A DNA stretch of 60,811 nucleotides, filler included, from Porpidia crustulata (taxonomy: Eukaryota): the NCBI GenBank assembly GCA_964255105.1. It is 5 parts of 5 records of this genome, joined end to end, with 100 filler letters (N's around TTAATTAATTAA, not from the genome) between each part and the next. Parts side by side here need not be neighbours in the genome. Positions count along the whole stretch, not along the records: positions 1 to 12,116 come from CAXUWE010000567.1; 4 more parts are not named here. One strand, given 5' to 3'. Shown piece by piece: positions 1 to 46,400 of this stretch. The notes under the pieces are model-generated. The model saw only the letters and a list, made by a program, of their open reading frames with translations, was not told the origin of the DNA and did no database searches. Each line of letters starts with the position of its first letter. Positions within the stretch are counted from its first letter, which is position 1. The position numbers were made by a program, and so were the translations under genes.

Positions 1-482
1 ATTAACTAGGCCTTCCAGAATGATGCACTACCAACTGCACCACTCCCCCGTCGGTGTTTTTACGTAGTAGGCCGGGTTGTCGTGAACCACTTCTTAATAA
101 TCGTGCCAAGACTTTTACCCGGACCGCACAAGAAGATCATGGGTATGAGTGCCAAAGGAGTTTCTCAGTCCTTTCTACGAGCCAGATCTCAACGACTCTG
201 GAGTAGACGTTGAATTCAACGCTAATTCCAGACAGTTCGAACGAGCACCGTAATACCCGCGACCATCATCACCGTGGCGACAAAGACGATCACCTTCCAA
301 CCGTTGAGGAGCTGCTATTCTCTCTCGCAGAGAGATACGAGAGCCGGAACGAGCTGGCTTAAGAGGTGAACACGTAGCGGGACGCACCACCAACTTGTCC
401 TTTTTGCGCCAACTCGAGTGAGCCGGGCAAACGTCCAAGGCAGCCCGTATGGCGATCTCATACGATAGGTTACTTTGAACAT

Positions 483-866
483 ATGGCTGAGCAGTTCTAC
501 TACTACAGTATTCTCGCTTCTACTCCCCTCAGGTCCCTTGTCGGTCGTGATAAGCGGCTGCTCACGGTTCATTCTTCACTCATAGCTCATCATTCGGAAT
601 CCCTTGATCTCCCTGTTAATGAACACATGTCGGAAGTAAAGGAGGGATGTGCATTATTGGAAGACGTCGAAGAGCAAACATTTGTTCAATTCAGTCAATA
701 CGCATATACCGGGAAATACTCTGCTGCAGATCCAGACATTCGTCCCAACACTTTATGGCCAGGATCTTTTGGACCTTTAAGTGCTTCCTCACCAACTTTT
801 CCACTGATGAAAGCCTACATACTTGGAACGCGGCTAATATGCTTGTTCAATTGGTCACTTAGCTAA
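483..866 (+). pseudogene. BTB/POZ-domain protein remnant
   Basis: ORF reads LVGRDKRLLTVHSSLIAHHS..VNEHMSEVKEGCALLEDVEEQTFVQFSQYAYTGKY, a typical fungal BTB core. Downstream frames contain many stops, so the C-terminal part is degraded. Confidence 0.7.
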
Positions 867-1142
867 AAAATGTCTACATTTAATCTACGAAGTAGATGCA
901 AGAGCAGGTTTTGTGGAAGCTGGGTTATCGTTCATACTAGGCAACAGCAGTCTCTGCGTAACGATGGTCGTTTGGGAAGTACAAGTTATAGTAACAGCAT
1001 TATGCGACACTTTAAGAGATAGAGGATTGGGAGAACTTCTAGGAAGTCGTATTTGAATCGGTACTCTTTCCCCTTCAAATAGATCCATCGGTTCATGGAT
1101 TTGTTTCCAAACAAAAAACAGCCCAAAGCTTTCCATACGCTC

Positions 1143-2280
1143 TCAGTACAAGGGCACTCCTCCATCGTCGGAGTCTTCCTCGGACTTATCGGCAGCCCCT
1201 ATAATATCCGAATTCAGGGGCTCGTGTGTCGACTCCTCCATGTCTCCGTCAGCCGTCAATTTGGTTTCTTCTACATTATACATGTCTTCATCACGTTGAG
1301 GCAGAGTCGATCTCGCGTGATGCAAATCTGCTGGAGTATATGTTAAGCTATGAGGACGGCAAGATGATACCTCAACTTACCACGGCATGTGCCTCTCAAG
1401 AATGGTTCTTCCAATACCATCCGCGAATACTGAAGTCCCCAGTCCCGTAGTCGAGTCAGGGTGAGCTTTAATCCCCTGATATTCTGGCACAATCTTGTCC
1501 AACACAAAAAGCCGGATTCCCCTGATCATCGCGTTTAAGGTATCCTCTTGTTCCTTGACCAACGTTGGCAAGTCCTCCTAAGCATAGGGAGGCTGCCATT
1601 GAATATATAAGTTGTTACTACAGCCCGATGTTTGAACCTGCAAAGGGTGGGCCTGAAAGTATCGATAACACAAGAAACACGTCGGTTTACTAACGCCGAT
1701 ATACCGAACCCCATCCCAAAACCGGAGTTTTACCGGAGTTTTTGGCGGTGAAACAGGTCTAGGAGAACGACCTCGGCGTGAATTCTCAGCTTAAACTTGG
1801 GGTTTTGGTACTCATCTCGAATGCGTTTTTCTAGTAGGAGGTGGAACTTTTCATCCTGGCATTGGAGCTCTTTTCGATAGTATTGGCAGGCCTGGGGATC
1901 TGTCACCATTCGATTGATGATACCGTTACTCGAAGACTTCCCCCTATAAGATGGCGGTGTGAAGTCCAGATGTTGTGTTGCGATTTCAATCGAATAGCCC
2001 ACAAATAGCTGAGGGTAGTGCCTCCCAGCATTAATTGAAACCCGTGCGGCTTTCAATTTGTCTGATTCAGTCAGTAAGAATACACAGGAGACTACATTAC
2101 TGCGGATCCAGACATTCTGTCTGATTCCTCCACGATTACCTCTACGTATTTTGTTCCGAACGAAGCTTCCAATGCCGATTCCAGCTGATGAAAGGAAGTG
2201 GTATATTGACTGACCAGAGGGCGCATGAGGTGATAAACACTCTTCGAAGGGTTTATCGCTAGGGCTTTGGCACTGGCCAT
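1143..2280 (-). pseudogene. OTT_1508-like nucleic-acid deaminase, disrupted
   Basis: Removing one copy of an 11-bp duplication (1721-1742) gives IHAEVVLLDLFHRQKLRFWDGVRYIGVSKPTCFLCYRYFQAHP..SGCSNNLYIQWQPP...HPDSTTG, i.e. the HxE and SKxxCxxC zinc motifs of the family. An in-frame TAG lies at 1578-1580. The 3' end is approximate (acidic tail EDSDDGGVPLY). Confidence 0.85.
1721..1742. repeat. 11-bp tandem duplication ACCGGAGTTTT x2 causing a frameshift
   Basis: Directly visible; lies between the HAE and YIGVSK motifs of the deaminase. Confidence 0.95.
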
Positions 2281-2382
2281 ACGGACGCTGAAGCTGTCAA
2301 CTACGTAGATTACAGCTAGAACTGGTGAAGGCTATCATTCTTGCACATTCGGTCGTCCTATCACAGATACAAGAACAGACCA

Positions 2383-3395
2383 TTAGTCCTCCTTCATCCC
2401 AAAAAAGCCTTTCACGTTCCCCATAAAGCCGCCTATCGCTCCTTTTGCATTCTCCGTCAACCCGCCTATCGCTCCTTTGGCATTCTCCGTTAATCCACAA
2501 ATCATTCCTTTCAACGAAGCCAACCCCACTCCAACTACAAGCATACAACCGAAAGCACCAATCACCCATATAAGACCCATGGCCGCCCCACCCATCGCCA
2601 TGCTTTGCAAGAAAGCAAAGACAGACCCAGATGCAACTGATCCTATTGAAGCTTGCCATGCCGCGGCTATGCTTGAAGCAACAGGACCGATGGCGCTGAA
2701 TCCTATAGCTCCGAGTATTGCCGGAGCAGCTAAGGCGAGCGTAAAGAGCGAGATTCCGCTTAATATACTAGCCGATTTGTAGGGGTGAGCGCGGATCCAA
2801 TTGGTGATTTCATTTACGAGCTTCCGGAGTGCCGGCCCGTAGCGATTGACGACTTGGATGTTAGTTGCCGCTTCCGTTAATCGTGGAGGAAAGGGAACTT
2901 ACCGAGTATCCGTTGCGAAGTTGCGAACCGGATGCAACGGTAAGTGAGTGCGCCAAGCGCTGCGTGAAATCCGACCATGTTGTTTGTCATGGTGGCTTGA
3001 TGAAGGAGATTTTGGGATTCCGCCCTATTGAATTTGTTCAAAGCGTTGACAGGTGGCGGTATGCGTGTCGATAAGTCCTCTGGTTGCTGATGTGCTTCAA
3101 GAGCTCTGGTTATTTCTGCTAGAGAATGATGGTGAGCTGAGTAAATTTCGGCGTCTAAGTTGCCTGGATCGTTCATTATCTCGATGGTACCGTCCAGGTT
3201 GAGGACTAAGCCTAGAAAATCATCGTCCTGTTCCGCGTTATTGAAGGGAAGTTCTCCGACAATAGCCTCACTCCACTTTTCTTGCAGCTCGTTCGGCAGT
3301 TCTTGAATGGAGCAAATACTACTGATTTGAGGTTCCCCATTATCTTGAAGGGGATCTCTGATCAGCAAGCAGTATGTAACATTGTTTGAAGGCAT
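2383..3395 (-). CDS. IFI6/IFI27 (ISG12, Ifi-6-16)-like membrane protein with unrecognised N-terminal domain, about 320 aa, 1 intron
   Basis: Intron 2853-2902 (GTAAGT..CTAAC..AAG) joins ORF 2877-3395 in frame to ...LGAIGFSAIGPVASSIAAAWQASIGSVASGSVFAFLQSMAMGG, the Ifi-6-16 signature. Spliced length is 963 nt. Confidence 0.8.
2429..2494. repeat. 33-bp coding tandem repeat (GLTENAKGAIG x2, plus diverged GFMGNVKGFFG)
   Basis: ccgcctatcgctccttttgcattctccgtcaac followed by ccgcctatcgctcctttggcattctccgttaat. Confidence 0.9.
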
Positions 3396-5131
3396 TCTTG
3401 ATATGAATCGTGTGGGTTACAGCTTATGCTGACGAGGAGGATCGAATCGGAGCGCAAATCGTAGATATCCCACGGAACGACTTGTTTCATTTAACTTTCA
3501 CGAATAGCAGCCGGTCTTGTTTTTTTCCCCAGATGAGCGCTGACCCACAACTAAGTCTGCCAAAAGATTACCGTCGTTGCTTCTGAAAAATGGTCGTCCG
3601 ACAAAGAGCAGGACGATGATCTAGGATTTTCTCGGGTAAATTTCCGAAAAGCTGAGAAAGGCTGCTTGTTATGTTTTTCGAAAGTTGTTTGGAAGAAAAC
3701 GGAATGAATATTCCGTCACTAAGTGTCAGTGCATTCTTGTTATGACAGCAATGAAAAAGAAGCTTCATGTTCATCAGAGTAAGCCAACTGGCGGAGCAGT
3801 GATTATTGGTTCGCTATGGGAGATGTGAGAAGCAGGGATACACGGTTCGAGGCGTTCGATTCTCGCTTTTCATCTCGAAGCACCACAACGCAGTTGTGAT
3901 TGAATGACCGAACGAATTCAGTAAAGCGTCGCGTTTGAGTATACATATCGTCGAAAAGATGTCAGCCGTCCTCACCGAGTCTTGACAAAAATGGTTATGA
4001 TCGACAAATGAACGGGCACAAAGTGCCTATCCAATGACAAGAGAAGGTACCCGCAATGCCTTTCGTGTACAGAGATCTACAACTCAGAACACATAAAGGT
4101 TGATTCAAAATCTCCAGTCACGTACGCTTGAGTCATCATCATCTGATATTAGAAATGTGATTCTGAGTGTTCTCGGGCTTCCAAAAGAATTCGGATTCCA
4201 TACAGATATTTTCATTAATGACAATCCGTAACTTCACCATACTTTCGATTGCTTTCCAATGCCCCCCTGACGAAGCAGCCGACATCATTTTGCACATCTG
4301 GTACTCCGTCCAAATAGCAGCTTCTCGAGCCAGAAGCACATATATTCTTCCTCTAGTTGAAGCGGTGACTCCCAAGATAAAAGGATAAGTCATCGACGAT
4401 TGTACTTACGAAGACTTGGAAATTTGGGACCCGGAGCCTAGGTTTATCGCTTCTCAAAAAGCAATAACAAGTACTGGTTCCGAAGCTAGCTCCCAATGCA
4501 CAATGCGGTTTCGAGAAACGGGTGTGCTTCTGCCGTTTTCTGGCGATACTCGACCGCACAAGATTCCGAATCCGTAAGGCTCGCGTCTTCGCCCATAGTC
4601 TCAATATTAACGGTCATCGCAGGACCCTGTTTGACAATGAAGGGGATTGGCTGCTTCACAACTTCTCTGATCCTCTTGAAGGTTAGTGTCTTGAAGAGGT
4701 TCATAGCAGTGATGCGCAATTTGCTGCGCAGAAAAGCGATGTCTACGGGGCTCTTTACTATCATAATCTCTCCAAACATGAAAGATTCTGTCAACGATTG
4801 TCCAGCATGAACATAACTTTACAGCTACTCGAATATGACGCTTCGGATCTTTCAAAGTATCCTTAAGTGACACAGAACATAATCGGAGATTCGACATAGT
4901 AATACATAAGCTTACAGTAAATCAAATTTTATAGTCTGCGGCTGGGAGAGTGTAGAGCACCCTTTCTCTCCCACTGCTTTGCCAATCGATGCCATCTGCT
5001 CTGTGGCACTCTGATTAGCCGGAGGCTGCTCTTTCGTCTAGTGGCAAAAGTTAACGCCTATGGCTCATTTGCTCATGCGACTAATACCCTTTTCTTGCAG
5101 TCTTTAAGTTAGGTTTCTTACGGATCCTGAC

Positions 5132-7579
5132 ATGCGCGAAGCCGAAACCGAGCCATTGCAGCATGACGTTTTTGGTGTTGACTTGATCAGGAGGAGCTTG
5201 CTTCTTCTCAAAGGCCTGATCGCTGGGGGAATCCTGGCCTTTGCTCTGCAGCAGAAGCGATGGCGTGTTAACTACGGACTTGACCTCTCACGGACCATGC
5301 TTGCTGTCCCATATCGCGCAAAGGACAATCCAGCAACACGAGCTGAATTCAGCCACCCCGATGCCACCATCGTACTAACTTGTCTAAGTTATTACTACGG
5401 TGGCCTTTCGGATGAGCAGTTACACACCGTCTTCGAAAAGCTGCTTTTGTGCGATAACGCCCAAAAGGAATATGAATGCTGGGTTCAAGATGCTTCTGAA
5501 TTACCGTTCTCGTTTCGACAATTGACTGGCATCAATCTGAGCGATCCTGCGCAGTGTTCTCAGCTGGTCTTCCCTTCGTTAAGGTTCGCCAAAAGTGCAA
5601 TCGACTTCTATATGTCACGTATTGTCTTTCCGAAAGAGATGAAAGAATTTCCACACAAGCTGTCTTCTTCGGGCTGGGACATCGCACGAGCGAAAGTTCA
5701 CCCAACAACGGGTTTCAGTGGGACAAACGACAGCAGATATATATTACCATTGTCCATAAGTCAGTGTGATCTCCCACCGCAGCTTCACACAAATGCTGCA
5801 GTGCTCGACTGTCTGCTACGGCCCGAAAACTCTTTTAAGCATGCTATGCAGGAGTCCAGAAAGGAAAGCTTCGATGCAGAATCGTTACTGCAAATAGTCG
5901 TCGGGTCGGAGCCGCCTGTGCGAGTAATTCTCGATGTGGGAGCGCAAGTTTTGGAGCGGACGAACGAGGAAGTCGCACGTACATGGCTCGTGCGCGTTGC
6001 GGCATCAGATGCACAGGCAGCCGTATTCTTCGATGATCATAACGATCTGTCAGTCTTGAGCCGTGACGGTATCGTGGAATCGCTGATGATTTCCCCTTTT
6101 GCGAAGCAGATGGACCAGTGCCTAGTATACCTCGACGAGGCTCATACCCGAGGGACGGACTTGAAGCTACCGACGAATTACCGGGCCGTTGTGACTCTGG
6201 GGCCTGACCTCACCAAGGATCGAATTGTGCAGGGTATAACCCGATCCAATTAATTCTGTTTCCCACTGCTAACTCAAACAGCGTGCATGCGAATGCGGAA
6301 GCTAGGAAAAGGCCAATCAGTCATGTTTTGCGGGCCCATGGAAGTTGAACGTAAAATTCTCCACTGCAGCGGCAAAACCCAGTGCGACACCATCAAGGTA
6401 GCCGACGTGTTACAATGGAGCATTTCGGAAACCTGCATCAACACAAAAAAATGCATTCCGCTGTGGGCGACACAAGGGATACGGCATCAGCGTCGCCATA
6501 TAGCATGCTCGGAGTCTTCAAACGACGGAGGCAAAGGCGCCGCTTTGGAGATCGCAAAGTCATTGCTCGAAGTTGAGGCGCAAACTCTCCAGGATCGATA
6601 CGGATTTGGAGGACGAAGATCGGAAGAACAAGTCTTGTTACATGGCGTGGAGGAAGTAGCACTCTCAACCCGTGAGACGCAAGTGGAAGCCATTCGGACC
6701 AAATGTCGAGAATTTGGACTGACATCGCTCAACAACGCAACACTTCGGGAGGAGCAGGAGCGTGAGCTATCACCAGAGAACGAGCAGGAGCGACAAGTTG
6801 AACGTCCACCAGCGCTCACACCCAAAAATCACAATGTTCATCCAGATGTGAGGCGCTTTGTTCACCAGGGAATCCTTGACCGTTGTTCAGACGCCTTTCA
6901 GCCTGCCTTCGAGCTTTTCGGCAACACAAGCGCCATCGAATGTCTTGAAAAAGAAACATGGCCGGTGCATTTGCTGATTACGGCCGACTTTGCCCAGACG
7001 GTACACGCTTCAGGAAACCAGCTTTTGGACTCGTTCCTTAGGCCTGTTCAATGGGTCGCGAGCAGAAAGAACCGCAACACGGTCGACTGCGTGGTGCTCA
7101 GCCCGTACGAAGCTCACGAATTATTGCCATATATACGCCAGCACAACACCGTCACCCTACACGTCTATTCACCTCGCGTCAGTATGTCTGTGCGTACGCT
7201 AGAAGATCTTTCATTTTGCGCCATTCCTGCGGTATCCAGATGTTGGGCCCCACCCCCTTCTATCATGCAGCTCAATCTATTTGCCGGTCAGCTCTATCTG
7301 AGAAGCTACGAGGAGTACATTTCGATCTGTCAATTCTTAGGACTGTGTTTTCGCCCGCGGTATGCGCAGGTTAAGGTCGCCTGCGATGGATTCATCAGTC
7401 CAATAAGCAGGCCAGAATTCGACGCAGTCATGGAGAGAGAATGTCCTTTTAGGGCCAGTCCGGTTGGGTTTCTGAGAATGCTGATGGCGTTGAGAAGGAA
7501 AGGGCAGAATTTCCAAAAGTCTCACATTGGCAAAATTCTGCACGGTGAATCGCTTGCCAGGGAACAGTTCCAAGGGTAA
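5132..7579 (+). CDS. DUF3645-containing C-terminal part of a DUF3638/DUF3645 giant protein, 5'-truncated, 1 intron
   Basis: Motifs KRWRVNYGLD..LAVPYRAKDNPATRAEFSHPD..LTCLSYYYGGL, GFSGTND, ILDVGAQ, YLDEAHTRGTDLKLP and EEQERELSPE. An intron at about 6234-6281 joins Q-A-CMRMRKLG. An in-frame TAA at 5105 precludes 5' extension. Confidence 0.85.
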
Positions 7580-8097
7580 AGAAGTTCGAGTCGGATTCAG
7601 ATAGAGATAGCGCGAAGACTAAATGGCTAGCTCGGCTCCTTCCGTGCTTCGCCACGCTGTAGAGAAGCTGCGAAGATTCTAGAAACTTCGAGTAAATCTT
7701 GGTCTCTCACTGTCTGGGCCTAATTACATCTATACTAAAACGCGATGGCCACAACAAGTCAGCTTCTCTCGTGAATGAGATTTTGGGTATTGGAAAGAAA
7801 TTTCCGCTAAATGCCTGTATGAGGTTGTGCCTGAGGCTGTACAACTTTTACAATGACGGCTCCTGTTGACTAATGTATCTCTATCACGTGACCGAAAGTG
7901 CGCACGCGCATTTTGCATCACGTGACGAAAATTCCTGATTCTCTTCAGACGCAGAGCACAGTACGATACTATTTGGTAGCACCTTTGAATTGTATTTCGA
8001 AGGGACACTATCCGACTCTGTCATACGCGAAGCATCAACCACAGAAGAATTTTCCAGTGATGAGTTTTCTTGTGATGACGCAACGGAATGGGGTTAA

Positions 8098-9250
8098 TTA
8101 ACTTCTTGTCCACCGAGCTACCGTACCATCCACTAAACAGACCATAGAGACCGAGCCTTTCAAAATCGCTCTGATAAATTGCAAGCCTTTTTCTCGCATT
8201 AACATTACACGAGGATCACTCCATTTTCCTTTTGTTTCTTTCAAGGCCCATTTACCAAGATTCAAAAGACGATATCTTCCATAGACCACAGCGCCCACGG
8301 AACTCAGAAACAGTAGAGGAACTATGAATGCTGCGACCACATAGGAGTCTGGCTCCGGTGTTGATGGCGGTGGTGTGCTAGACGGTTGAGTGTCAGGTAA
8401 TAGCGATGCTTGCTTAGTGCGCTGAGGATTGCTGTATATATGCGCATCTTGCCACGTGTTGGAGACGACACGGGTCCGGTATGATGGAGGGGAGACAAGA
8501 ACTTGGGATGGACCGGTGGCCACGGAGTGCGAAATGGCTGGGGTGTAAGTTCTTGATGGTATCTGTGATAGTGTCCGTTGAGATGTCCACAAAGATGAGT
8601 GCGGAGCAGTGAGTACGTTAAGACTTGGAGTCGAGGGGTGTACGAAGGATCGACCGAACTGGTCGCTATGCGGGCTGGGATGTGTTGTAGGAGGTGTGGA
8701 TTTGATATATGCGTTTAACGTATTGTAGGATGTTCTTTTGAGCTTGTATTCTTTCCCGGAGCGACAGTATGGGTCCAAGGACGCCACACTGATGGTATAC
8801 TTATATTCCGTCTTGATGGAAGGCTTTTTACGGAGCTTGGTGTTGTTTTGGAGGGACAATAGAATGCCATTATCAGGATGGGCAGCGCTAGGGGAGATTG
8901 GGAGGTGATGATCGCGTTGGTGTCCTTTTGTTGGATACTTCACTGCGAGAGCTTCTCCTATTAGCGGAAAACTCAAAAGCTAAATTGTTTTTCAGGAATG
9001 TTTAGATCAGAATGCTAACAATAAGTACAGTAGCCTTTCCCCGCACTATCTCCGTGGACAAAACCACAATGGGATGATGGAAGCAGCCGTCGTTTACTTC
9101 TCTATCCACGAGAAGACGTTCCTCAATTTTGTTTTTCCTCGATAACCAAAGGATGCAGCCTACTTCGATATCTTTGCGTTGATGAGTTGTGCTTTGCCGC
9201 CGGCGTGCCGGCTGTGGAGACGGGTGTAAGGACGCCTGTGTCGCGGGCAT
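8098..9250 (-). pseudogene. Fungal hypothetical protein (GCILWL..GCFHHPIVVLS..LPI.P..HPDNG) with C-terminal TM helix; possibly PemK/MazF-like fold; likely frameshifted at the intron
   Basis: ORFs 9002-9250 and 8098-8976 are separated by an intron-like stretch (GTTAGC...GCTAAT..AG). The candidate donor is phase 0 while the nearby acceptors are phase 1. Confidence 0.45.
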
Positions 9251-9635
9251 TGTGCTATGATCGTAGGTAAGGACGGTTCGAAGGAAGGAACTTTCATGGT
9301 GGACGGCAGTCTGATGGATTTGCTACCCCGTCCCCATCTTCTTTTCAGAAACGTAGGTAGTCATCAAGACCGTCGTCCTCATCTCCACTACTCGTACTCT
9401 CTGAGTTCTTCTGTGTCAAGTTGAAGGGTACTTTCAGAAAAGAGAATGCGCATTAGGAGTCCCAGTAAACGGTGCGGGGTGAATCATGGTTACACAGACT
9501 GCGATTGGGGAGCCTCAGCCTTGGCATAAGCTAAGCGCTGCGGAATCTTTTGTTTGACCAACGCCATATCTTTAAGCCTTTCAAGACGGTTTTCTAACGA
9601 CCTTTGGAGCCATTTTAACGTAGCACTTTACGATC

Positions 9636-10661
9636 ATGGAGGTTGGAAACCAATCGAAATGTGCTGAAGCTAAAGGGTCTCCAATCCGTTCCATTGCTCA
9701 CGTTAATGATTGTGGATACGCTGGTATACCCGAAGCCGTCGTTGCTCCTGTCTTCGAACTTGCGTGTGACCTTCGCTCCATGAAACCAAGTGTAGATAGT
9801 ATAATCACACAGACGAAGACACAATTGGATCATGATATAGTTTCTGCGCTCATAGAGGCGGCTGATCGCTTATCACCATGTGACAACACGCCACATGGAG
9901 TGAAAGCACGCAGAGAGAAGAGCAAGAGCAGAGCAGAAATAGCTGAGCGCGCTGAAGAGCTTTTCCTTGCGAATTTCACAAGACTAGGCTATCGCTTTCT
10001 AAGCGAAGCCCAGCAGAAAAAATTTACAAATGTTACCCCAGACATTCGTTTCGCGAAGCCGACCCTTATTTGTGGTTACCTCTGCTGGTGATTGGAATTC
10101 AAGGACTTCTTCGGTTTTCGGGCAAATCCTTTCTTGGCATCACAAAACGAAAAACAACTAAGAAAGTATGCGGCGCAAATTGGGCAGGGGGCGGTTGTCT
10201 ATAAACTCGGCTTTGAGACTGATCATATGAATATTGAGGGTGTAAATATTCTGCGTGAAGAGGAAGTGCTTATGAATTTGGCTACGCAAGACTATAGTGG
10301 GAATATCACTAGAAGCCGCGATCTTGCAAAAGCTCCATCAAAATCATTCATCGCTAGTTCTGCGGATGAGACCAGTCTTAGCAGGCTCAATCACCAAGGC
10401 GGAGTACATATTGACGGAGAAGACCTTGCCGAAGAGAAAGGGAAGCCTCACAGAAGCACGCAAGATGGGTCACAACAGACGACAAATGCTCCACCTATGA
10501 ATAATCAAATCAAGAAACCGAAGATCGGTAACACTAGATCTCTTTCGAAGGTCACCAAGGGCTATCGGATTACAGACAAGTACAAAAGAAGCCGCTATTT
10601 TTCCAAAGATGATAAAAGTCCTAAACCAGAAGCGCCATGGCGCCGTGTGCTTTATCAGTAG
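9636..10661 (+). pseudogene. CDIN1/C15orf41 (TPD-domain) PD-(D/E)xK nuclease-like protein with one in-frame TGA (10089-10091)
   Basis: Two abutting in-frame ORFs read AEELF..LGYRFLSEAQQK..TPDIRFAKPTLICGYLCW*LEFKDFFG..QLRKYAAQIGQGAVVYKLGF, matching the TPD..W(I/L)ExK..Q..Y...G.G.VVY..GF pattern. Confidence 0.75.
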
Positions 10662-11404
10662 CCAGCTACTAATACTTGGGGAAATACAGTATGATTCTAA
10701 GACAGATTTGGTCAGACAATGATGCTCATCGATCATTGGAAAGAAACGGACGAAGCAATCCTCTCCATATGATGGCATTCACGATTTGCAGGTTCTCTAC
10801 ATCGCATGCTGAGACTACGAGCTCCAGCTATCTTGAGGATGTTTAAATCGGCGGCCCTTCAAGTGGTGGAGGCAGAATCGTCTATAAGAGTCCCGATTTC
10901 ATTACTAATGTTGGGTGGAAATGTAGCGAAAAGCATTTAGGCGTGAGAACGACAATGAAATCAAATCTTTCCTCCACCTCAAGACTCCTGCCAGCTTGAG
11001 AGGAATTCTTGGCGTCCTCGCGGGCCCTGGGTTTCTCACAGTCCCTGCCTTCCCTGCATCCTGAACGCCTTGCATTCCTTGCACTCCTTCCAAACCATGC
11101 GGACCTGGCAGAACATCATTCGCTATATCCAATGAACCCGAAATTCCGGCGCATCTTTACACGAAGTATCGCTTGCGGGGCCTCCCGCGTCTTCGCTTTA
11201 CATCCTTTTTCGTCGATGATCTAAGACATTGAGCAAACTAGCATACATCACTCCACTTTCTTATAGTCCGAATATATAATCTACCTGCGACGCGTTCGTT
11301 CAGCACCCATTTCAGTGTACGACCTAGCATTCTTTCCTCTTCTTCAACGATCGGATTTCACAACATACAATCGTGGAACCGACAAACCTTTTATTTCCGC
11401 ACGA

Positions 11405-12076
11405 TCACGTTTTCGTGTTCTTCTTTAACTTCTTGATCTTTTTTGAGAACGGTGAGCTAAACTCTTCTGAAGAATTAGCAAAAGGCATCGACACGGCGTT
11501 GAAGAAGAAAACGGGAATCGCTTGATCCAGCTCAAGTGCAGAAGAGACTCGAAACACCTCAACATCGCTAAGTGTCGATACTATCTTCAATTCTGAGAAT
11601 ATTGTAATTGACTCGAATAGTTCAGTGAAAGCTTCTTCTACGATGTGCTGAAGTGATCTCTCAGTATCTGTAATAGTCAATCAATCGACAGTGCAGCTTG
11701 CCTGAAATAGTTGTTCAAAGTTAAACAAAATCTCAACGTTTTCGCTATCGGGATCATGTCGCTTCGTCGGTTTTCGGGAATCAAGAATGCGAAAATTTGA
11801 TACATCAGCTTCATCTGAATTGAAAGTTAATCAACATGAAATCTGAAAAATTGAATGAAAGACATACTCAAAGTCTTGCGATTGATATGAATTCTGCAGA
11901 TTTTCAACTCTGCTTGTAACACTATCATTTTCTTTTGCGTTTGTTCTCGAAGATCTCGATTTTGATGAGATTCGGCTGCTATATCATCGACAAGCTCTTT
12001 GTTCATCTGCAAAACATGTGACGATGAGAGAAGATCACTGATGTCAGCAACAAGACAGCTTTCTGTTACGATCAGA
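11405..12076 (-). pseudogene. 3' remnant (GED/stalk region) of a fungal Mx-like dynamin GTPase, hypermutated
   Basis: ESCLVADISDLLSSSHVLQMNKELVDDIAAESHQNRDLREQTQKKMIVLQAELKICR resembles the fungal dynamin GED pattern. It is followed by an intron (GTATGT..TTAAC..CAG) and a last exon with an internal TGA. Confidence 0.7.
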
Positions 12077-12116
12077 CCTTCCCCAACATCCCCAGCAGCC
12101 CACCGGATCAAGGTGG

Positions 12117-43421: not shown

Positions 43422-46400
43422 ATGGCTTACCACTTGATGAAATCACCCAGCGGTGAGACCAGGACTGGCCTTGCTGCGCAGACTGGTGACCCCTCATTGG
43501 ATCGAAGGTTCAGTCGATCCTGGCTCCGTTACCGTCGTGAGAATGACCTCCATAAGACACCAAGGGTCCGCTTGGGTTACGACTGTTGTATTTATCTCCA
43601 ATACATTCAGTTGATCTATTCTTGTACATGGACTCGGCCGTGGTTTTATCAAATCGTGGCGAAAGGGCGATGATCCTAGGTTGTAGTGGCCACAGCACTG
43701 GCTGCCTCTGAATCCAGACCTCTAACATGCGAGTATATACACCTTCTGTTACAATGCTGATTTCAAAGATGCAAGAGATAGCATTCTCAATGTTCATGAA
43801 AGTCGAACATGATCTAGTCATTCTTATCGACCACTCTATGGGAGGTCTTGTACTTAAAGTGGTTTGTTCGAACATCCCCATCGTTCACATAGCTTTTTCC
43901 CTTAAGTCTGATTGTTCAGGAATACATGTTAGCACTTCAAGATGTGCGGAGTCCTGACATTGGGCAACGCATTAGATATTTGTTTTTCCTTGCAACTCCT
44001 CATCGCAGCTCCGTCCTCACCGCGCTTTTTGAAAATGCGCTAAGACTTTCTAGAGTACTCTCGGCCAAGCATTACGTTGGAGATCTTGAGAAAAATATTG
44101 CGTCAGCGCAGATTATCAATCACGACTCTAGGAATTATGTACACGACGGTATCATGTTATAGTCATTCTTTGAAACACTGAGGACTGGCATGGGCATGGC
44201 CTCGATTTCAATAGTCGATAAAGAATCTGCGGTCCTAGGTTAGTCAATATTCCAAGTTCGGCATATCAGCTAAACCTTTGCAAGGTTTTCGGCACGAAGT
44301 TGTTCAATGTCTAGATGGAGACCATCGAGAGATTTGCAAGTACGACAATCCAGATGATCCAAGTTATGTAACTATGAAGAATGCATTGGCTACAGCAGTC
44401 AGTGACCTTTTAGAAGAAGGCATATCTTACACTATTTGTGAATCTGATTTTAACTGGCTTTGGATGGAGCGCATGCCAATAGAATTGAGAAATTTCGTGT
44501 TGCAAATGACAAACTTGAGGGCCTATCTCGACGTAAGTGATAGAACGGAGGAAGACTTCGCGAGCCAGGAGAACGCGTAAGTTGCTGCATCATGCCGATG
44601 GCTGGAAGAAAGGGAAGATTTTGAAACTTGGCACGACGTCTTTGACGATGTACTCGGCGAAAACTCCGACAATCTCCCACAATTCTATCACCTGAGTGCA
44701 ATGCCCGGAGTAGGCAAGACTGTTCTCGCTGGACACGTGAGAGCACATCTTCAAGAATATCGTCTTGATTGTGCGTATTGCTTCTTCCACTATGGCAATA
44801 AAAGCGGACAGAGGCTTAGTAGACTCCTGATTTCTCTTGCCTATCAAACAGCGTATAAAACACACACGTCCGTGAACTACTACAACAGCTTGAATGTGAA
44901 AGAGTACTCTCGGATAGAGATGATGCATGGTCAATATGGCGAACAGTTTTTCTTGATGGTGTCTTGCAGGTACAAACCTTCCTCAAAGACTTATCAGACT
45001 TACGCTGATTCATCTATAAGCAAAGATACATCGGCCACAATACTGGGTGATAGCCACTCTTGACGAGTGCATCAAATACGCCGAATTCTTCACATTATTA
45101 AGCAAAGTAGAGACAGCCTTCCCTTTACGAATACTAGTCACTAGGGTATTACCCGAAATCCCGTCGCACTTCTCCCGTTTTGGAAAGAATGCCGTGAGCA
45201 TTAGGACAAATTTGCACGATTCTCCAAGAGATATTGAAACACACATTCAGAATTGAATCGAAGTCCTTCATTTAGAAAGCAGTCAAGAAAAGCAAGAACT
45301 TGTAAACGAGGTTTTGGCCAGATCTGACGGGTGCTTTCTCTGCGCACATTCTGTCCTTGATGAGGTATCAAACGTTCACACCCATGAAAGTATTTACATA
45401 GTTCTGGAGGAGATTCCTGAAGGCATGATATCACTTTATCAAAGATCATTGGAGATCATGTCGCGTAATAAGATAAGCATGCATCTCGTCAAAGCCATCC
45501 TGTTGTGGACTCTGTATAGAGTACGCCCCTTACGAACATCCGAGCTTCAAGAAACATTGAAAATAGATATTCTTGGCATCGAAAGAACAGTTGAGGATTG
45601 TGGGGCCAATTAGTGTATGTCGACATGCATGTTACAGTACTCGAAGACTGACCTCGCGATGTATTGAGCTGAAGTTCCGAGCCAATTTCCTCAATAGTGT
45701 TTCTATGTATGGAGACGTGACAGACTGGGATCTCAAGACTGGCGAAATTTTTGGGAAGCCAGGAAATACAAATACAGGGAGCCAAAGGACGAATCTGGTA
45801 GAGCCCAAGACAGGCCCACTATTACAGCTTCCTTAACTCCCGATCGCCAGGTCCTTACTCTGGCGACAAACATGACTTATGTTTACTTGTGGAGCCTGCA
45901 GGATTCTGACTTCATTGGATGGTGTTCTACCGATGAGGGCGACGATGCTTCAGTGGTGCTGTTTCAACCCCAATCCGCGAATCAGCATACTTGCCGTCGG
46001 CTATTGGACCTGCGTTTTGGCAATCTTTGATTCTTGGTCACAGGAGATAATTCTATCCACCAAAACTGATAACGGAAATCAATCAGTACCGTCCCTAGCG
46101 TCTAGTCTGGATGGCCGAACTTTGGCTACGGTCGATTTCAGTGGTACAATGCAGATCTGGGATTTTGAGACTCTCGTTTTGCTTTACCAAATCAGATCAT
46201 CTGATTGCGGATCCAGAGTCATTCATTTCAATTGCAATGGGCTGCAAATCTTGGATCTAACAGGTTTGAACCTAAGAATATGGGAACCAGCAGCGTTATT
46301 CCGCAAGACTCTTGAGGGGGACGGTAGTGTCAGCGATGCCGCAGTTCTATCAGCCATCGGGGGTTAACCAGAGGCAAAATTGGGACAAAGAATCACTGCT

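Follow-up and report, generated by a model that had tools for sequence, protein, structure and literature searches.

Gene-like units of contig 1

The window analysed in this study was a stretch of 60,811 nucleotides (nt) from the genome of Porpidia crustulata (GCA_964255105.1), made of five contigs of 12,049-12,116 bases joined by N's, and the analysis was directed at contig 1 (positions 1-12116; CAXUWE010000567.1). A sequence-only reading had proposed that this contig may be a fungal defence island of fast turnover, possibly carried by a mobile element, in which immunity-type genes are packed together without any recognisable housekeeping gene. All 119 stop-to-stop open reading frames (ORFs) of at least 50 amino acids (aa) on contig 1 were scanned against Pfam with a cut-off of E<=0.01, and 18 chosen ORFs were scanned again at a looser threshold of E<=10. 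Pfam matches were obtained for five of the 119 ORFs and 114 had none. As had been claimed, the 119 ORFs gave no match to a housekeeping family at E<=0.01; on contigs 2 and 5, by contrast, there are long open ORFs encoding a CDP-alcohol phosphatidyltransferase, Gti1/Pac2, Fis1, a PI4-kinase and an SNF2 helicase. Nine gene-like units were recognised on contig 1, two of them apparently intact, one of uncertain state and the other six truncated, frameshifted, interrupted by a stop or present only as fragments (Table 1), in agreement with the earlier statement that most of the genes are decaying. The most fitting view of contig 1 is that of a cluster specific to its lineage, in a copy which has been rearranged and is decaying. 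The named protein relatives came from lichen-forming and related ascomycetes (Phylliscum, Xylographa, Geoglossum and Trichoglossum), and the source fungus is probably a lichen-forming ascomycete.

Table 1. Position and state of the features recognised on contig 1
Feature	Position	Strand	Remarks
BTB-like ORF	483-863 (ATG 483, TAA 864-866)	+	C-terminal extent uncertain
OTT_1508-like (OLD-type) deaminase pseudogene	1146-2059	-	5'-truncated, frameshifted, with a nonsense codon
TAG nonsense codon in the deaminase	1578-1580	-	Gln in relatives
11-nt tandem duplication, AAAACTCCGGT twice	1721-1742	-	Separates the HAE frame from the PCxxC frame; directly read
Second BTB-type gene fragment	2056-2174 (~120 nt)	+	Lies between the point of deaminase truncation and the Ifi block
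Ifi-6-16-like gene, apparently intact	2383-3395	-	Exons 2903-3395 and 2386-2852; TAA 2383-2385; first ATG 3395
Conserved segment	3817-4145	-	Downstream of the DUF3638/3645 gene in relatives, upstream of the fragment here
DUF4470 remnant	4167-4385	+	Pfam 24.5 bits, just below the cut-off of 25
3' fragment of DUF6606-DUF3638-DUF3645 giant gene	5108-7579	+	Residues 1137-1970; open throughout; DUF3638 ATPase lobe missing
Barrel/membrane gene, intact	8098-9250	-	Exons 9020-9250 and 8101-8979; 40-nt intron 8980-9019
TPD/CDIN1-like PD-(D/E)xK nuclease gene	9636-10661	+	In-frame TGA at 10089-10091
Homology to the C-terminal extension of P0001/P0002	11474-11860	-	Frame differs from that of the GED piece
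C-terminal (GED-like) end of Mx-like dynamin	11848-12063	-	Sole part of the gene on the contig
Multi-copy repeat edge at contig end	12061-12116	.	Summed depth 1301, against 11.6 elsewhere

The OTT_1508 deaminase domain (PF14441) was detected in ORF 1581-1790(-) (E 6.2e-16, 58.5 bits against a cut-off of 27), and the deaminase was 94% identical to the relative P0125, itself a carrier of PF14441. Both catalytic halves are kept in one ORF in P0125, P0126 and P0129 (300-318 aa, up to 94% identical) and likewise in the longer relatives P0132 (456 aa) and P0134 (592 aa). Homology to these five relatives begins at position 2059, which corresponds to aa 67 of P0125 and aa 292 of P0134, and the 5' part of the gene is missing. 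The two zinc-binding motifs, H[AC]E (here HAE) and PCxxC, are both present on contig 1, but in different frames, and the frame changes right after HRQKLR. With the 11-nt duplication removed the frame reads HRQKLRFWDGVRYIGVSK, where the close relatives P0125, P0126 and P0129 read HRQKLRFWDGIRYIGVSK (I for the first V); the more distant P0132 and P0134 diverge from HRQKLRFWDGIRYIGVSK at further positions. The duplication, which causes the frameshift, is absent from all five relatives; the frame without it is near-identical to that of the close relatives. Another shift of frame was located near 1414-1440, where three metagenome relatives have one base fewer (extra base at 1414). To judge from these lesions, the deaminase gene is dead.

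The TPD/CDIN1-like nuclease gene is interrupted in the catalytic core of its product by a TGA codon which falls between the TPD and LEFK motifs, just ahead of the ExK motif. The nuclease call of the sequence-only reading held once the stop was read through: TPD (PF14811) scored 18.8 bits in ORF 10092-10658(+), below the cut-off of 27, and rose above the cut-off (37.1 bits, E 3.4e-9) only when the frame 9624-10658 was read with the TGA as X.

Recoding of the stops and of the frame switch, by A-to-I editing or by programmed frameshifting, might leave such genes conditionally functional. OTT_1508-like deaminases of Neurospora adjoin zinc-finger genes and edit premature UAG codons there in an antiviral response, according to the available portion of PMC12754623, and an edited TPD UGA would become Trp. 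This explanation is barely credible for contig 1. The frame switch is a tandem duplication which the relatives with both halves in one ORF do not have, and the TAG of the deaminase stands for Gln, not Trp, in a gene that is also without its 5' part. The A of the TPD UGA is preceded by G, whereas the editing described in the same portion of PMC12754623 prefers U at -1. No zinc-finger neighbour of the deaminase was found among the 119 ORFs (Pfam, E<=0.01).

Another enzyme-type gene is represented by the back part of a giant gene. DUF3645 was detected in ORF 5108-6250(+) (E 1.3e-17, 63.3 bits against a cut-off of 25). The fragment is related to the DUF6606-DUF3638-DUF3645 giants of the Pezizomycotina by 95% identity to P0004 (over residues 1137-1513 of P0004 only) and by an alignment to residues 1141-1970 of P0070, but it is without the first 1136 codons of the giant gene and hence without DUF6606 and DUF3638. 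The DUF3638 domain of P0070 occupies residues 855-1078, where a weak DEAD-helicase match was also seen. The gene is complete in relatives, with about 1970 aa after the DUF6606 exon, and a DUF6606 ORF lies upstream of it in L005, L013 and L020, three of the 80 metagenome loci (labelled L001 etc.) that formed the comparison set for DUF3638/3645 neighbourhoods. Among these 80 loci, the match started at 5109-5111 in all 27 of the 27 that align end to end.

An in-frame intron of 48 nt (6234-6281) with canonical GTATAA..CTAAC..CAG signals was recognised in the fragment. The stop at 6251 was considered as a nonsense codon and rejected, as it falls within this intron, and 5108-7576 is therefore a single open frame. 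No stop or frameshift was present over 2424 coding bases. The branch leading to the fragment carried 21 synonymous and 21 nonsynonymous changes; for the sister clade these numbers were 44 and 39 (Fisher p 0.85). As the remaining 2.4 kb is without decay, the helicase-like gene would have been truncated recently.

The AlphaFold2 (AF2) model of the fragment was of low to middling confidence overall and confident for aa 240-365 only, with a RecA2-like fold placed at aa 224-375. The rows returned by VIA-align for aa 240-365 were mostly helicases (HrpB, Z 6.3; Brr2, 6.0; HrpA, 5.8; MDA5, 4.9), all with Z below 8. This is a first fold-level hint that the DUF3645 region may resemble the second RecA-like domain of superfamily 2 (SF2) helicases. 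The fragment is accordingly modelled as keeping a RecA2-like lobe and the C-terminal ~430 aa, with the ATP-binding lobe gone. In alignment A2 (5108-6232 with 34 relatives) the DUF3645 region is marked by an invariant TGFSGTNDS and a near-invariant LDEAHTRGTDL, the latter with a possible resemblance to helicase motif V of RecA2 domains. Sequence searches of the PDB with P0070, P0124 and profile A1 gave no match. No function of DUF3638 or DUF3645 was described in the full-text literature, as judged by titles and the opening lines of abstracts.

Only the tail of the Mx-like dynamin gene named in the sequence-only reading lies on contig 1. ORF 11830-12114(-) is 67% identical to residues 629-700 of P0003 over about 72 codons, and three relatives were found in total (P0001, P0002 and P0003). 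The GTPase and middle domains are absent from the contig, where only the equivalents of residues 629-700 were present, and no dynamin family was matched on it even at E<=10. The full-length relative P0003 (706 aa) carries Dynamin_N and Dynamin_M (Pfam), and its best matches by sequence among solved structures were human Mx1 (125 bits) and Mx2, followed by Vps1 (109) and Drp1 (~97). By these match scores, 'Mx-like' is a fair label for the family. A frameshift in the dynamin tail was considered and is not claimed: P0003 and the contig ORF share their end, and only P0001 and P0002 extend in the other frame.

By these readings all of the enzyme-type genes would be disabled, by truncation, by a slippage-type 11-nt duplication or by a stop codon. 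That contig 1 is a currently active defence island, with genes functional as they stand, was considered highly improbable and is already contradicted for the enzyme genes. Two genes do look intact, and the helicase-like fragment is open, with constraint not relaxed. Against this, the deaminase combines a 5' truncation, the duplication and a TAG, the TPD frame has a TGA ahead of its ExK motif, the helicase-like gene is without its DUF3638 lobe, and the dynamin consists of 72 codons only.

The two genes that look functional from their sequence both encode small membrane proteins. In the Ifi-6-16-like gene, a 50-nt intron (2853-2902) with canonical GTAAGT..CTAAC..AG signals joins ORF 2386-2898(-), in which Ifi-6-16 (PF06140) was detected (E 2.2e-11, 43.9 bits against a cut-off of 29.1), to ORF 2880-3416(-). 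The exons are open, with 85-92% aa identity to locus L004 and ratios of nonsynonymous to synonymous substitution rates (dN/dS) of 0.33 and 0.41; further upstream exons are possible. The C-terminus of the predicted protein repeats a GLTENAKGAIG-type motif, encoded by three tandem 33-nt units at 2408-2511. No function of fungal Ifi-6-16 proteins was found in the full-text literature, as far as a listing of titles and abstract openings goes.

The second of these genes includes ORF 9005-9322(-), which the sequence-only reading had called PemK-like. Full-length relatives (P0151 and P0175) indicated that this ORF and ORF 8101-8979(-) are one gene, and the second exon aligned to residues 90-309 of P0151 (E 3e-26). 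The product has a conserved N-terminal domain (a small beta-barrel), an S/T/P-rich linker and a C-terminal membrane helix. In the family of 50 representative relatives or clusters (P0136-P0185) the barrel conserves G.ILWLP...GCFNHPVVVLS...ATVLIV(T)SF and the linker is disordered. No Pfam family was matched in any of the 49 relatives scanned out of these 50, or in the contig ORF at E<=10, and a profile search of the barrel family against PDB sequences gave no match of any kind. One protein-atlas cluster, with PemK_toxin in 13% of its members, matched the barrel ORF at 0.84. With the AF2 model of P0175 (predicted local distance difference test score 66.6), Foldseek gave no match at E<=0.001, with MazF appearing only among rows of E 3-5, and VIA-align of the same model, of low to middling confidence, returned generic small barrels (KOW, Tudor and SH3; Z<=3.7). 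The PemK/MazF reading of this ORF is unproven.

The remaining units are smaller. For the BTB-like ORF, 25 of the 30 protein-atlas matches of ORF 378-863 were BTB clusters (best score 0.94), and BLASTP gave E 0.009 against a Pfam-positive BTB ORF of another locus (L001:5287-6222) and E 1.0 against the BTB ORF of L004. BTB/POZ (PF00651) was not matched in it even at E<=10, so that the BTB call of the sequence-only reading kept its atlas and BLASTP evidence and not a Pfam one; a BTB identity of ORF 483-863 is probable. Relatives of this region have indels of 1-2 nt at 865, 970 and 1001. The stretch 680-741 of the BTB-like ORF recurs at 2056-2117 as a direct repeat of 62 nt (76% identity), and a second BTB-type piece therefore sits exactly at the junction between the deaminase and the Ifi block. 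Most domain calls of the sequence-only reading held: the OTT_1508 deaminase, Ifi-6-16 and DUF3645 domains were all above their Pfam cut-offs, and the PemK-like call was not confirmed.

Breakpoints and assembly of the contig

The breakpoints on contig 1 fall within genes and are private to this genome. Contig 1 was compared with assembled contigs of sequencing runs, with relatives counted at 90% identity or more; 22 runs were listed, none of them of RNA. Rock-metagenome relatives (90-95% identity) hold the blocks 53-2055, 2175-4040, 5109-7760 and 9391-11105, and at the block edges, including 2055, 2175 and the position before 5109, their contigs continue into unlike sequence. The runs of relatives gave no cover at >=90% for 4145-5108, ~8415-9390 and 11313-12116, which is an absence of cover only. 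The first of these gaps (~1 kb), which holds the DUF4470 remnant, has no long ORF and no relative at >=90%, with a depth of about zero in relatives, and no tblastx match was obtained for it in the downstream flanks of five loci (query 3400-5108). The order of the blocks also differs: in L004 and L008 the DUF gene is followed after ~3 kb by the Ifi block, which here lies upstream of the fragment. The claim of fast turnover is supported by these private breakpoints inside genes and by the same families standing in other orders in close relatives.

Junctions of this kind could be artefacts of the short-read assembly of a mixed sample; the assembly is fragmented, both ends of contig 1 lie in repeats, and lichen samples hold several genomes. 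Run X1, the sequencing run in which 98% of the sampled words occur and the probable source of the reads, was used in an independent assembly for comparison. One X1 contig of 7148 nt matches 3946-11093 from end to end at a flat depth of 11.6, with 0 differences. This speaks against both a chimera made by a single assembler and the presence in the sample of another copy at >=90% identity. Further X1 contigs cover 26-2235 and 2366-3973, and no repeat common to the five contigs of the window was found. An assembly chimera is, on this evidence, very improbable.

The dynamin homology stops at 12063 and the depth rises there to that of a repeat; the contig therefore runs into a repeat at this point. 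The segment 12061-12116 is common to many X1 contigs, several of which have loose ends at 12061-12067, and it is probably the edge of a repeat family. Searches of the 80 loci and of the other four contigs gave no match to this end repeat. Run X1 also has another contig, 480 bases long, which was ~90% identical to 11222-11701, and the region of the dynamin tail therefore has a paralogue in the same sample.

Repeat-induced point mutation was examined as the cause of decay and rejected (TpA/ApT 0.42-0.97 and composite index >=1.0 in every 1-kb bin).

The sequence-only reading had also suggested that the contig may be cargo of a large mobile element. Under this explanation contig 1 would belong to a Starship or similar element, or would consist of transposon-captured gene fragments. 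Gene fragments abound in this accessory and variable region, the contig ends in a multi-copy repeat, and near-identical DUF copies occur in different contexts in relatives (see below). Neither the 119 contig ORFs nor 150 flank ORFs of five related loci gave a match to a recombinase, a transposase or DUF3435, and terminal inverted repeats and long direct repeats are lacking from contig 1, with the qualification that 12 kb is too short for the boundaries of such an element. Neither a boundary nor a recombinase having been found on the 12 kb or in the five related loci, the proposal was not sustained, and cargo of a mobile element is improbable.

Neighbourhoods of the giant gene in relatives

The neighbourhood data consisted of Pfam scans of the 150 flank ORFs of five loci and of tblastn searches over all 80 loci, which were clustered by the DUF gene at 93% identity into 39 lineages; the survey of co-location covers the flanks of the DUF gene only. 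In L004 and L008 the order is DUF gene, BTB, Ifi-6-16 and Dynamin_N plus Dynamin_M, all within 13 kb. In L001, SET and BTB are followed in turn by a DUF copy from residue 127, an Mx-like dynamin and a UvrD helicase, and in L003 the DUF gene likewise stands between a BTB gene on its upstream side and an Mx-like dynamin on its downstream side. In the L012 group a dynamin was present, with no BTB match. In-frame stops in the dynamins of L001 and L012 were considered as nonsense codons and rejected, as they lie inside in-frame introns common to both loci. The full-length DUF genes of L005, L013 and L020 have mostly ordinary flanks, with a BTB match directly downstream in L013.

Within 10 kb of the DUF gene, a dynamin was found in 11 of the 80 loci, BTB in six and Ifi-6-16 in two; counted by lineage, the numbers were 3/39, 2/39 and 1/39. 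The strong cases of linkage were all in the clade nearest to contig 1, and two weak cases were found elsewhere. The body of the deaminase, TPD and the barrel/membrane gene were found in none of the 80 loci, and the first 32 residues of the stop-to-stop ORF upstream of the deaminase (inside the Ifi block) matched two loci. Because the linked loci are mutually within ~5% nucleotide divergence, they represent one ancestral linkage and not independent events. The linkage itself is real and, going by these sequences, is explained by recent common ancestry.

Three observations on the DUF gene itself were made in these loci. Its copies in L001, L004 and L005 (and L006 and L008) are at least 98% identical over 1.1 kb and stand in three different contexts, which suggests recent duplication or several close fungi in one sample. 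Two contigs of one assembly series end inside the DUF gene, at residues 501 and 605. The DUF3638/3645 copy at L001:5287-12478 starts from residue 127, is without DUF6606 and has a BTB gene directly upstream; this copy is a second, independent 5' truncation in the DUF family.

The linkage in relatives bears on whether contig 1 is the wreck of a genuine immune-type cluster. Under this explanation the linked Mx-like dynamin, giant helicase-like ATPase, BTB and Ifi-6-16-like genes of the recent ancestor, perhaps with the OLD deaminase, would have acted together in antiviral or conflict defence. The compact four-family order of L004 and L008, the flanking BTB and dynamin genes of L001 and L003, and the dynamin of the L012 group are in its favour. 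OLD deaminases take part in an antiviral response in Neurospora (PMC12754623, portion available). Fungal MxF genes are reported as Mx orthologues with a strongly variable copy number, from zero to five, and without known function (PMC11789081, portion available). Fungal counterparts of bacterial defence islands have already been published as a hypothesis still to be tested (PMC10197012 and PMC12881547, available portions). Several results stand against it, namely the single ancestral linkage, the low counts by lineage, the mostly ordinary surroundings of the full-length orthologues in L005, L013 and L020, and the complete absence of the deaminase body, TPD and the barrel/membrane gene from the neighbourhoods surveyed. 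Fungal MxF, Ifi-6-16-like and DUF3638/3645 proteins are, in addition, without known function. A wreck of this kind is unlikely, if worth keeping in mind.

A more specific form of this explanation, that contig 1 is a degenerate copy of a linked module which is intact in sister lichen fungi (e.g. L004), was judged to be distinctly unlikely. Such a module would combine the Mx-like dynamin, the ~3000-aa SF2-helicase-like DUF6606-DUF3638-DUF3645 protein, a BTB adaptor and the Ifi-6-16-like protein, jointly directed against mycoviruses or selfish DNA.

A probable birth-and-death patchwork and its relation to known defence systems

Contig 1 is probably an accessory, unstable birth-and-death patchwork of lineage-expanded, conflict-type families which does not work as a system. 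Its pieces would be the OLD-type OTT_1508 deaminase, two BTB pieces, the Ifi-6-16-like protein, the DUF4470 scrap, the back half of the SF2-helicase-like giant, the small-barrel tail-anchored protein, the TPD/CDIN1-like nuclease and the Mx-like dynamin tail. They may have been brought together by repeated segmental duplication and by break repair among paralogues, with the truncation of the helicase-like gene a putatively recent event.

Several points weigh against this interpretation. The 5' parts that the helicase-like and dynamin genes are without may be located just past an insertion, off this 12-kb contig with its repeat ends, and the open, seemingly constrained helicase-like fragment could yield a shortened protein. 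The X1 contig that spans the main junction was built from the same reads, a library artefact being unlikely. The TGA of the TPD gene could be common to its relatives, and the disabled state of the genes is read from DNA alone. Finally, selection for linkage, besides ancestry, could account for the four families lying together in sister genomes.

The families on contig 1 are nonetheless of a kind discussed in fungal immunity, and the sequence-only reading was right about their general character; OLD deaminases and MxF are the cases described in the available portions of PMC12754623 and PMC11789081. In the OLD-ZAO module of N. crassa (Honda et al. 2025, as related in the portion of PMC12754623 available), the OTT_1508 domain, the HAE and PCxxC motifs and membership of a family that is antiviral in a fungus are shared with contig 1. 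The module differs in that the contig 1 copy is dead and that a search of the 119 ORFs revealed no neighbouring zinc-finger gene with a premature UAG. OLD is the only experimentally supported fungal defence family on contig 1, and that copy is dead. With fungal MxF, which has a highly dynamic copy number (PMC11789081, portion available), the likeness was judged by the match scores of P0003, which carries both dynamin domains and has Mx1 and Mx2 as top matches; the difference is that only the last ~72 codons are present on contig 1.

In common with bacterial defence islands, contig 1 and its relatives show clustered conflict-type families, quick turnover between close relatives and pseudogenes. 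They differ from such islands in that the enzymes are inactivated here, co-location is not general in the 39 lineages and no link to a mobile element was seen. The proposal of a defence island is not supported, given the inactivated enzyme-type genes and a linkage to the DUF gene confined to the nearest clade. A contig is not a defence island merely by having several immune-like domains, as most of those here are wrecks.

Fungal NLR/HET-type immune families evolve by birth-and-death. They resemble contig 1 in lineage-specific expansion, in truncated or pseudogenised copies and in variable context, and differ from it in that the contig 1 families are not NLRs. A gene apparently of the NLR type lies elsewhere in the window: on contig 4, at 44581-46364, NPHP3_N (NACHT-type), winged-helix and WD40 pieces are found in separate ORFs and frames, which looks like an NLR-type gene in pieces.

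For the annotation of fungal genomes, contig 1 is a negative example for the calling of defence islands from domain content. An unnamed family of small-barrel, tail-anchored fungal proteins without a Pfam model is defined here. The useful lead is in the close relatives, in which intact Mx-like dynamin, giant helicase-like, BTB and Ifi-6-16-like genes lie side by side in shuffled order, and these loci supply a concrete four-family combination for the open hypothesis of fungal defence islands. If the intact module of the sister genomes proved to be genuine, it would be the equivalent of a defence island in a eukaryote, with relatives of the interferon-stimulated genes of animals as its components.

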